Assembly: GCA_038065275.1 (NCBI GenBank) | Contig: JBBTRH010000009.1 | Coordinates: 1-50,248 of the forward strand | Length of the DNA stretch: 50,248 bases | Reading direction: 5' to 3' | From: Patescibacteria group bacterium | GTDB lineage: Bacteria > Patescibacteriota > Patescibacteriia > SBBC01 > CAIJZX01 | Shown: positions 37,808 to 38,057 of the stretch, one piece after another | Layout of the letters: each line of letters starts with the position of its first letter | How positions within the stretch are numbered: the stretch's first letter is position 1 | The notes under the pieces: generated by a model | The model's input: only the letters and a program-made list of their open reading frames with translations | What the model was told of the DNA's origin: nothing | Database searches by the model: none | Position numbers and translations under genes: made by a program

Positions 37808-38057
37808 GGGCCGTTAGTCCCGATGTGCCACCCAGCGGCAATCGGGATCCCGAATCCCGAAGTTCGAAGCATTCGGGACTTCGGGACTCAGTTGGTAGAG
37901 CGTCGCATTCGTCCCGCACCACTGCTGGCCGTGGGCCAGTAGCTCAGTGGTAGAGCACTGCATTCGCATTGCAGGGGTCAGGGGTTCAAATCCCCTCTGG
38001 TCCACCAGTAGCGGTGCGGGACGAAGGTCAGCGGTTCGAGTCCGCTACGGTCCACCA
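37808..38057 (+). pseudogene. Disrupted outer tRNA-Ala(CGC)-like gene enclosing the intact tRNA-Ala(CGC)
   Basis: gggccgt ta g[~70-nt tcccgatg...cgggac insert]tc agttggta gagc g tcgca ttcg | tcccgcaccactgc...[intact tRNA]...gtagcggtgcggga | c gaaggtc agcgg-ttcgagt-ccgct acggtcc ACCA. Confidence 0.7.
37933..38007 (+). tRNA. tRNA-Ala (anticodon CGC)
   Basis: gggccag ta gctc-agtggta-gagc a ctgca-ttCGCat-tgcag gggtc agggg-ttcaaat-cccct ctggtcc ACCA. G3:U70 is present. Confidence 0.9.

Follow-up and report, generated by a model that had tools for sequence, protein, structure and literature searches.

The tRNA-Ala(CGC) locus described here occupies positions 37707 to 38057 of a 50,248-nucleotide (nt) stretch of DNA from a Patescibacteria group bacterium (GenBank assembly GCA_038065275.1, contig JBBTRH010000009.1), which was analyzed at its full length and is called the window below. 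The locus is a 110-base palindrome-ended cassette that carries its own tRNA-Ala(CGC) and interrupts an older tRNA-Ala(CGC) gene at the anticodon loop. We refer to the enclosed gene as the cargo and to the broken gene around it as the shell. A sequence-only reading of positions 37808 to 38057 had proposed this nesting of an intact tRNA-Ala(CGC) in a broken gene of the same kind, and the tRNA calls, made with ARAGORN and Rfam family RF00005, bear it out: ARAGORN places the cargo at 37933 to 38007, and its Rfam score is 72 bits against a gathering score of 29. Further fragments lie upstream, at 37707 to 37807, so that the CGC locus comprises three layers, the outermost (level 0) without its 3' half. 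The features, in order, are listed below; here and throughout, a slash between two bases marks the point at which an insertion sits.

37707 to 37718, + strand: 5' half, nt 1-13 (gggatgtagctc), of the level-0 (outermost) tRNA-Ala-like shell
37719 to 37766, + strand: CCGCC...GGCGGGCAGG hairpin element at the D stem/loop boundary of the level-0 shell
37767 to 37789, + strand: level-0 shell from the D loop to anticodon base 35 (cagtttgtagagcgtctcgttcg), broken after TTCG
37790 to 37807, + strand: left arm of an older cassette in degenerate form (accagcaccac ttttata); its homologue at 14023-14037 reads tcccgcac ttttgga
37808 to 37817, + strand: level-1 shell nt 1-10 (gggccgttag)
37818 to 37847, + strand: cargo-less hairpin TCCCGAT-16 nt-ATCGGGA at G10/C11 of the level-1 shell
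37848 to 37886, + strand: second hairpin, TCCCGAA...TTCGGGA, in the level-1 D arm
37887 to 37911, + strand: level-1 shell nt 11-35 (ctcagttggtagagcgtcgcattcg), the last base being anticodon G35
37912 to 37932, + strand: cassette left arm, with the inverted repeat TCCCGCACCACTGC at 37912-37925
37933 to 38007, + strand: cargo tRNA-Ala(CGC), intact, CCA encoded (ARAGORN, Rfam RF00005)
38008 to 38021, + strand: cassette right arm GTAGCGGTGCGGGA
38022 to 38057, + strand: level-1 shell 3' part, nt 41-76, cgaaggtcagcggttcgagtccgctacggtccacca (cgaaggtc agcgg ttcgagt ccgct acggtcc acca)

The cassette (37912 to 38021, 110 bp) has the ends TCCCGCACC...GGTGCGGGA and contains no open reading frame (ORF). 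The inverted-repeat pair that the sequence-only reading placed at 37912-37925 and 38008-38021 is complementary at 12 of 14 positions, the outermost 9 being perfect, and the pairing continues 4 bp into the shell (TTCG/CGAA) to give a 13-bp run, a property of this copy only that is absent from the related locus L109. The outer acceptor strands, gggccgt and acggtcc, match in seven of seven pairs, including the G3:U70 pair to which that reading had drawn attention; the T arm (agcgg/ccgct) also pairs, as does the D stem (gctc/gagc) once 37818-37886 is removed. Every stretch quoted in that reading was found where it had been placed, and its two halves of the outer gene stand. Its layout of that gene required revision on three points: the 3' half resumes at nt 41 rather than nt 36, the gap left in the D arm consists of two separate hairpin insertions, and the older shell upstream had been overlooked. 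The second of those insertions holds a third hairpin (37855-37878) at its dyad center. The 250-nt stretch is predicted to fold as one cloverleaf enclosed by another, with an energy of -133.4 kcal/mol (z = -7.9 relative to 200 shuffles), and the cargo is 77% identical to its own shell.

The outermost layer is older and more fragmentary. The start of the level-0 shell resembles the outermost shell of locus L100, ggggatgtagctc..., and the CCGCC...GGCGGGCAGG element that interrupts it has two more copies in the window, at 13397-13484 and 14113-14200, with an identical 49-nt core in all three; in the copy at this locus a hairpin TCCCGAC...GTCGGGA (37728-37752) is nested within it. The stretch that combines the degenerate old arm with the start of the next shell (37798-37853) is 80% identical to positions 14028-14083 of a second nested locus in the window, that of tRNA-Ala(TGC).

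Related loci, designated L plus a number, were sought in a scan of one genome per prokaryotic species with the pattern GGTAGAGCG-N5-TT-N-G-TCCCG, which returned at least 118 stretches; the matches listed were mostly chance matches in coding DNA. At least 15 loci hold a genuine tRNA 5' half that TCCCG interrupts after base 35, 14 of them tRNA-Ala and one (L078) tRNA-Thr. An intact tRNA-Ala with the same anticodon lies 15 to 310 nt inside the break in 13 of the 14 Ala loci among the matches listed, and L078 shows the same nesting for tRNA-Thr(TGT); in L024 the contig edge falls inside the second nested copy. Lineage labels are Patescibacteria in 12 of the 15 listed loci (Saccharibacteria, Taylor-, Lipton-, Buchanan-, Yanofsky-, and Spechtbacteria, and "Patescibacteria group") and uninformative or doubtful in L068, L078, and L109. 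The deepest nesting among the matches listed is the four layers of L100. If the two tRNA-Ala(CGC) variants are called X and Y, the window has the arrangement X{Y} and L068 the arrangement X{Y{X}}, and the Y layer of L068, its middle shell, is 92% identical to the window cargo. Loci L068, L100, and L109 share with the window both the TCCCGCAC cassette end and an upstream tRNA-Arg(CCT). Between the window and L109, the spliced level-1 shell, which is broken likewise in both, is 91% identical, the cargos are 85% identical, and the neighboring coding gene is 67% identical at the nucleotide level. The shell identity, like the excess of TCCCG hairpins given below, speaks against a chance origin of the pattern. 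In a metagenome scan, 10 stretches were returned, and only L123 and L127 were real; both are TCCCGCAC cassettes without an ORF.

The metagenome-assembled genome (MAG) labels of L109 (CAYGGS010000019.1), L078, and L139/L140 read Gammaproteobacteria, Thermodesulfovibrionia, and Spirochaetia. These three labels appear inconsistent with tRNA cassettes of the type found in the candidate phyla radiation (CPR) and may reflect mis-binning or mislabeling. A scan of viral contigs for the junction pattern yielded no broken tRNA, its two matches being fortuitous ones in coding DNA, and carriage of the cassettes by phage was rejected as an explanation.

What distinguishes the CGC cassette is its junction. 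Five shell bases, C36 to G40 (CATTG), are absent at the point where the 3' half resumes, and excision of the cassette leaves 71 nt. ARAGORN found no tRNA in this strict 71-nt splice of the level-1 shell, and it reported a tRNA-Ala(cgc) when the 5 nt were added back; the shell is thus unrestorable because five target bases are missing at the junction. Failure to form a tRNA upon in silico removal of the insert had been named beforehand as grounds for abandoning the nested-gene proposal, and formally the spliced outer halves do fail. What this failure establishes is the death of the outer gene as a tRNA gene; it does not separate the shell from tRNA by origin.

The same 5-nt gap is found at seven of seven TCCCGCAC junctions (the window, L068 twice, L100, L109, L123, and L127). 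In these shells the remaining three bases of the 3' stem strand match the shell's own 5' strand, and none of the four spliced TCCCGCAC-type shells submitted to ARAGORN (window, L100, L109, and L123) gave a tRNA. The presence of the gap at all seven junctions argues that it is a signature of the cassette lineage and not random decay; from the sequences it may have arisen either at insertion or by co-copying with the arms. An alternative parse, in which TGC of the right arm represents shell nt 39-41 and is followed by a 5-nt GGGAC insertion, also fits all seven junctions and is less economical. Cassettes ending in TCCCGA(T/A/C) behave otherwise: they sit exactly between nt 35 and nt 36 with neither gain nor loss, and in silico excision gave a valid tRNA-Ala in four of five such shells (L044, L054, L139, and L141). 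The TGC junction of the window is exact, like the other TCCCGA-type junctions. The claim of a topology shared with the TGC locus therefore survives for the break after anticodon base 35 and for the TCCCG... inverted-repeat boundary and fails for excisability, since the CGC type always lacks the five target nucleotides. The same reading had remarked on the lack of a nuclease gene, and indeed the CGC cassette has no ORF, whereas its TGC sister encodes a GIY-YIG protein; the suggestion that the CGC cassette is a non-autonomous version agrees with the count of ORFs in TCCCGCAC-type cassettes, zero in the seven listed above.

Most junctions follow TTNG (TTAG, TTCG, TTTG, and ATTG) and are flanked by G/C, with AGAG and AGCG as exceptions. 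Hairpins of the TCCCG type without cargo occur only in dead shells, almost always at G/C and mostly after TTNG. Dead Phe, Lys, and Ala(TGC) shells carry hairpins at G10/C11, as the CGC shell does. In the Ala, Phe, and Lys shells, a CCCCGAT... hairpin and then a TCCCGACCCGACAT... hairpin were observed in the same order at this position.

The sister cassette of the TGC locus encodes a protein, which the CGC cassette does not.

14216 to 14593, + strand: TGC sister cassette, TCCCGATT...AATCGGGA, enclosing a GIY-YIG ORF and a tRNA-Ala(TGC)

It contains an 81-aa GIY-YIG ORF (14231-14476) and a tRNA-Ala(TGC) (14505-14580), and it is enclosed by a broken tRNA-Ala(TGC) that one more 5' half precedes (locus 13977-14728). 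Three 5' layers were seen at that locus with only two 3' halves, 14594-14664 and 14677-14728. The two are similar, yet each has an acceptor strand matching a different 5' half, which indicates a rearranged locus and no clean nested stack. The ORF, the only GIY-YIG gene in the window, matches Pfam PF01541 (GIY-YIG) at E = 9e-17 and the UPF0213 structures 1zg2 and 1ywl. ORFs of 81 to 86 aa encoding GIY-YIG proteins occupy the equivalent place in the window TGC cassette, L024, L040, L048, and L054; the five proteins are 49 to 57% identical with 26 invariant residues, and each ORF starts 15 to 23 nt past the left end of the cassette. The layout TCCCGAT-[ORF]-ATCGnGGA/TCCnCGAT-[tRNA]-ATCGGGA describes two adjoining hairpin modules, and the ORF module is empty in L016, L056, and L067. 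In L024, L016, and L048 the inverted repeat of the ORF module was seen to span the start codon and the last codons (aaaATGTT... / ...AACATttt), so that the N-terminal MF and the C-terminal HF of the protein are constrained by a DNA palindrome.

A profile search returned 563 homologues at E <= 1e-10; nearly all of those that bear a name come from Patescibacteria. Eight homologue contexts were sampled, and in seven of them the ORF is enclosed by a broken tRNA-Ala and immediately precedes an intact one. The remaining context (L136, 1980-2300) is an ORF-only module, TCCCGATTTCTAA...TTAGAATCGGGA, with no tRNA. Two protein genes of similar size (566 and 565 aa) stand side by side there, and the module is inserted after ATTG/CA in the 5' end of the second; the ORF module can therefore sit outside RNA genes. 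More GIY-YIG copies lie beside broken tRNA-Trp and tRNA-Thr genes. The ends of ORF-bearing cassettes read TCCCG followed by AT, AA, or AC and not CAC, and no ORF-bearing TCCCGCAC cassette was present among the listed matches of the genome scan or in the metagenome scan. On sequence grounds, the GIY-YIG protein of the TGC cassette is the most likely candidate for a trans-acting nuclease serving the CGC cassette.

Evidence that such cassettes move comes from a comparison of L016 with L048. Their ORF modules are 88.6% identical over 343 nt and their cargo plus left flank 100% identical over 101 nt, while the surrounding flanking genes are 65 to 66% and the neighboring tRNA-Ile 75% identical; a cassette at 89 to 100% between flanks at about 65% points to horizontal movement. 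One nuclease protein (P0060) is identical in two distinct shell/cargo contexts and occurs in 105 assembly blocks. Orthologous shells hold different cargos, and the target position, after nt 35 of tRNA-Ala, is constant in at least 14 Ala loci. Judged by these sequence comparisons, related cassettes are spread across Patescibacteria, and at least one has moved between distant genomes.

We therefore consider it probable that the CGC cassette is a non-autonomous, self-compensating selfish cassette, which kills the resident tRNA gene and supplies a replacement. The cargo tRNA would take over the function lost by insertion, making the invasion of an essential, conserved, and always-transcribed target nearly neutral. 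Each new cargo tRNA would itself be a fresh target, hence the nesting. Since a scan of the + strand from 37194 to the cargo found no promoter-like site, expression of the cargo probably rides on shell transcription: the cargo would be transcribed by read-through from the shell promoter and freed by RNase P and 3' processing. The inverted repeat may stop mispairing between cargo and shell, or it may act as an RNase III-type processing stem. Cargo-less hairpins would pile up at G10/C11 in dead shells, and be confined to them, because they are harmless there.

Lacking a gene of its own, the CGC cassette would be mobilized in trans; among the scan matches listed, no autonomous partner with TCCCGCAC ends was present. 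It would move by homing or by transposition. Along the first route, a nuclease would cut an intact tRNA-Ala gene, and repair would copy the cassette by way of the tRNA halves as homology arms, in the manner of intron-less homing; this would account for the constant 5-nt gap, the high conservation of the shells, and the copying of several layers as a block. Along the second, a hairpin-ended unit would be cut or copied out and pasted at G/C, with a preference for TTNG, which would account for the conserved termini, the exact TCCCGA junctions, and the insertion in L136. The two routes may coexist.

Several points weigh against this interpretation. The enzyme acting on the CGC cassette is putative, and the TCCCGCAC ends of the cassette are unlike the ORF-bearing ends, no ORF-bearing TCCCGCAC partner having appeared among the matches listed in either scan. 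An empty-site allele of the CGC locus was not recovered: exact-protein look-ups of two neighboring genes gave nothing on record, and the sole contig reached through the glutamate dehydrogenase (GDH) gene starts after the locus. Nor did the window hold a convincing match to an unoccupied palindromic site, TCCCGAT/ATCGGGA. Surprisingly, the dead shell shares 91% identity with that of L109, where the cargos share 85% and coding DNA 67%; so well conserved a shell calls for hits that were recent or independent, for arms that were co-converted, or for a retained role. Simple homing needs no terminal inverted repeats, and simple transposition leaves the constant loss of five target nucleotides unexplained. 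Finally, all of the data are DNA sequences from metagenome assemblies.

The rival account that fares best, although we regard it as unlikely, dispenses with mobility altogether: tRNA genes would have been duplicated or converted locally, and palindromes resembling repetitive extragenic palindromic (REP) sequences or miniature inverted-repeat transposable elements (MITEs) would then have accumulated in the redundant copies, so that a single intact copy was left amid fragments by chance. Tandem, non-nested partial tRNA copies do follow tRNA-Leu(GAG) and tRNA-Arg(CCT) in the window, the flanking inverted repeats differ between tRNAs, and the small hairpins are genome-specific. However, a full copy enclosed by inverted repeats in the anticodon loop of a second copy is not what duplication produces, and the break point and boundary motif recur in at least 15 loci of distant lineages. 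The inner and outer tRNAs are distinct variants, 77% identical, so that the alternation of X and Y would go unexplained, as would a cassette 89 to 100% identical between genomes whose flanks are at 65%.

A second alternative, with low odds in our estimation, holds that the shell and repeats are kept for the benefit of the cell, as an RNase III processing scaffold from which the inner pre-tRNA is released, or as a decoy that shields the live tRNA gene from a nuclease aimed at tRNA genes. The closeness of the shell to that of L109, against 67% in neighboring coding DNA, would suit such a role, as would the strong nested fold and the inverted repeats that flank 6 to 7 of the 10 intact window tRNAs (repeats that differ from one tRNA to the next). 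Conservation of this kind can also result from recent insertion or co-conversion, however, and shells decay at many loci through truncation and extra insertions, the level-0 shell without its 3' half among them. The Val(TAC) and Ala(GGC) genes of the window do without a shell.

If the inserts were RNA-level introns, a protein endonuclease and a ligase would remove the hairpin-bounded segments, and both the outer and the inner tRNAs would be functional. This we regard as very unlikely. The TCCCGA-type inserts are bounded at nt 35/36 and their removal restores a tRNA-Ala in four of five shells, the inverted repeat juxtaposes the exon ends in the predicted fold, and many non-intron insertions are known in CPR rRNA genes (PMC11270868). 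Yet the 5-nt gap in the anticodon arm recurs at all seven TCCCGCAC junctions, where no tRNA is predicted; each complete locus encloses an intact tRNA with the same anticodon, a copy that would be superfluous if the introns were spliced; and shells are often truncated or further disrupted (L038, L045, L056, L062, L144, and the Val locus of the window). In the predicted fold the junction is a continuous 13-bp helix with no bulge-helix-bulge (BHB) and no 3-nt bulges, and its position is 35/36 rather than 37/38. Rfam, at its gathering thresholds and at E <= 10, reported the inner tRNA and weak look-alikes of tRNA but no intron of group I or II, and 110 nt is too short for a group I or II ribozyme. 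At the CGC locus the 5-nt gap excludes an RNA intron; for the TCCCGA-type shells one is conceivable.

That the locus is the scar of an integrase-borne island, inserted in a tRNA gene and later deleted, is highly improbable: the tandem 3' fragments after tRNA-Leu(GAG) would fit, but such an event would leave direct repeats of the 3' segment and not split halves around a complete gene bracketed by inverted repeats, neighboring ORFs have no integrase domain, and the cassette is just 110 bp. An assembly artefact joining reads of several tRNA-Ala paralogues can hardly be credited, even though tRNA genes are repeats and many homologous contigs are short and end in the nested region (L024 and L133), given that the junctions are exact, have a conserved motif, and are identical between independent projects and assemblers (NCBI MAGs, JGI, and ENA; L132/L133, L134/L135, and L139/L140).

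No description of tRNA-in-tRNA nesting or of tRNA-cargo cassettes in bacteria was found in the full-text literature searched, and the cassette family is apparently undescribed. Among known systems, one that is close in concept is SegB of phage T4, reportedly a free-standing GIY-YIG homing endonuclease that resides in a phage tRNA cluster and promotes intron-less homing. Both place a GIY-YIG gene beside tRNA genes, would promote joint inheritance without an intron, and would depend on homologous flanks for copying. SegB is intergenic, whereas the cassettes here lie inside an anticodon loop and destroy the gene; their 81-aa protein consists of a catalytic domain only, with no DNA-binding domain, they have terminal inverted repeats, and the CGC cassette is free of nuclease. 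We know of no nesting among Seg elements. Of the features of a GIY-YIG homing cassette, horizontal transfer at one conserved target is present, and an encoded nuclease is present in the TGC sister and absent from the CGC cassette.

Group I introns with homing endonucleases occur in the anticodon loops of cyanobacterial tRNA-Leu and tRNA-fMet genes (I-Ssp6803I). They too are selfish inserts in the anticodon loop, tolerated since tRNA function is kept; they keep it by self-splicing, whereas here the host gene is lost and a second complete tRNA is supplied. Genomic islands are said commonly to target tRNA genes, the anticodon-loop region included, and to leave partial copies. Like the cassettes, they carry sequence that keeps a working tRNA at their target, but they do so with a 3' segment, direct repeats, an integrase, and kilobases of DNA, in contrast to a whole tRNA in 110 bp. 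Neither an integrase nor direct att repeats accompany the CGC cassette, whose boundaries are inverted repeats, and a Pfam search of the 30 larger window ORFs gave no integrase or transposase domain.

Cassettes of the CGC type resemble MITEs and REP-like elements in being small, nested, and present in many copies, in having no ORF, and in a presumed enzyme acting in trans; terminal inverted repeats are common to both, here complementary at 12 of 14 positions in a 110-bp unit without a transposase. They differ in carrying a functional RNA cargo, in having a specific target position in tRNA, in the lack of a known transposase, and in producing no target-site duplication, all seven TCCCGCAC junctions having lost five nucleotides instead. 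IS200/IS605-like elements, which are single-stranded and hairpin-guided, insert 3' of a fixed short motif without target-site duplication; most junctions here follow TTNG, with the AGAG and AGCG exceptions. No Y1 HUH transposase (TnpA) was detected in the 30 larger window ORFs, and the GIY-YIG protein is the only cassette protein.

Insertions in CPR rRNA genes, the nearest published parallel in the literature searched, include non-intron ones, some encoding GIY-YIG proteins, which are treated there as sparse and outside homing (PMC11270868, J Bacteriol 2024). They and the present cassettes share the host group, the protein superfamily, structured-RNA targets, and positions at the tops or bases of stem-loops; that paper does not deal with tRNA (0 occurrences), cargo, nesting, or inverted-repeat ends. 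Disrupted tRNA genes of archaea and eukaryotes comprise BHB introns and split and permuted tRNAs (PMC4033280 and PMC4390854). These tRNAs are likewise interrupted at several positions, including the anticodon loop and the D arm; they are genuine genes whose pieces join at the RNA level by way of BHB motifs, whereas the fragments at the present locus do not combine into a tRNA and always surround an intact copy.

The usual means by which inserts survive in essential genes are splicing out, as in introns and inteins, and restoration of an end, as in tRNA islands. Carrying a whole spare copy of the destroyed gene would be a third, different solution, and it implies that tRNA genes in reduced genomes may undergo horizontal replacement. 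Nested loci of this kind go unnoticed in annotation because tRNA predictors report just the inner gene, and they would explain the poor assembly and the "pseudo-tRNA" fragments met in tRNA regions of CPR genomes. They would also provide a genomic setting for the widespread single-domain, UPF0213/YhbQ-like GIY-YIG orphan proteins, as well as a natural source of tRNA halves, relevant to how split and intron-containing tRNA genes arose. A wider proposal, which we put forward tentatively and think doubtful, is that the GIY-YIG protein and the TCCCG-ended cassettes form a new class of prokaryotic mobile element that targets G/C in stem-loop RNA genes and leaves nested replacement tRNAs; its targets would be tRNA and probably rRNA genes, and the tRNA-only units of the CGC type would be its non-autonomous forms. 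Were that so, isoacceptor genes of Patescibacteria would be replaced horizontally by selfish cargo, and tRNA halves would be made continuously, from which split or intron-containing tRNA genes might be built.

The window itself encodes FtsH, IF-2, RNase Y, an NrnA-like DHH protein, YmdB, and GDH, together with 11 tRNA genes according to ARAGORN (11 tRNA matches by Rfam). Among the matches listed, the closest relatives of the locus are in Patescibacteria/CPR MAGs, and the GDH gene is identical on a contig from a 0.2-µm-filtered Hainich groundwater metagenome. Hairpins of the form TCCCG...CGGGA (stem of at least 7 bp, length of at most 130 nt) number 21 in the window, and all except three lie in tRNA regions; 200 dinucleotide shuffles gave 1.0 on average and never more than 4. 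A looser hairpin density, compared between CPR loci and controls, was discarded, as high-GC controls scored alike.

Other tRNA loci of the window have comparable surroundings. Fragments of their own kind enclose the Val(GAC) (8675-9100, - strand), Phe(GAA) (14828-15060, - strand), and Lys(CTT) (16270-16960, - strand) genes, and these shells bear hairpins at the D-stem position noted above. After tRNA-Leu(GAG), at 12521-12995, stand three or four tandem partial 3' copies, direct and not nested, one of which is interrupted by a 16-nt TCCCGCC hairpin. The tRNA-Arg(CCT) gene is followed by a partial copy of itself with hairpins (37258-37470) that bears the right arm gaggcgaaggcaggcggg. In L109 (2300-2470), gaggcgaaggcaggcggg closes a CCTGCCCGCC-type cassette in which a tRNA-Arg(CCT) lies inside a broken tRNA-Arg(CCT), and this CCTGCCCGCC-type Arg(CCT) cassette shows that a second cassette family exists.

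The segment from 41400 to 50248 consists of short, unrelated ORFs (two NUDIX, one SLOG, and several without a family) separated by imperfect palindromes, ...AACGTTCRCG // CGYTGTTRNNYGAT, and looks like the cassette array of an integron, with the palindromes as attC-like sites; within the window no integrase was found. A second inverted-repeat family, CCCGTTAGAGGCG...CGCCTCTAACGGG, 78 to 100 nt long, is present at 1369-1448, 9176-9275, and 28864-28941, with copies located immediately 5' of ftsH and infB and next to the Val(GAC) locus. Palindromes of the form TGTTCC-NNNN-GGAACA, which may be operators or terminators, stand between tRNA genes at 37582-37597 and 37633-37648 and recur close to the equivalent tRNA cluster in L100 and L127.

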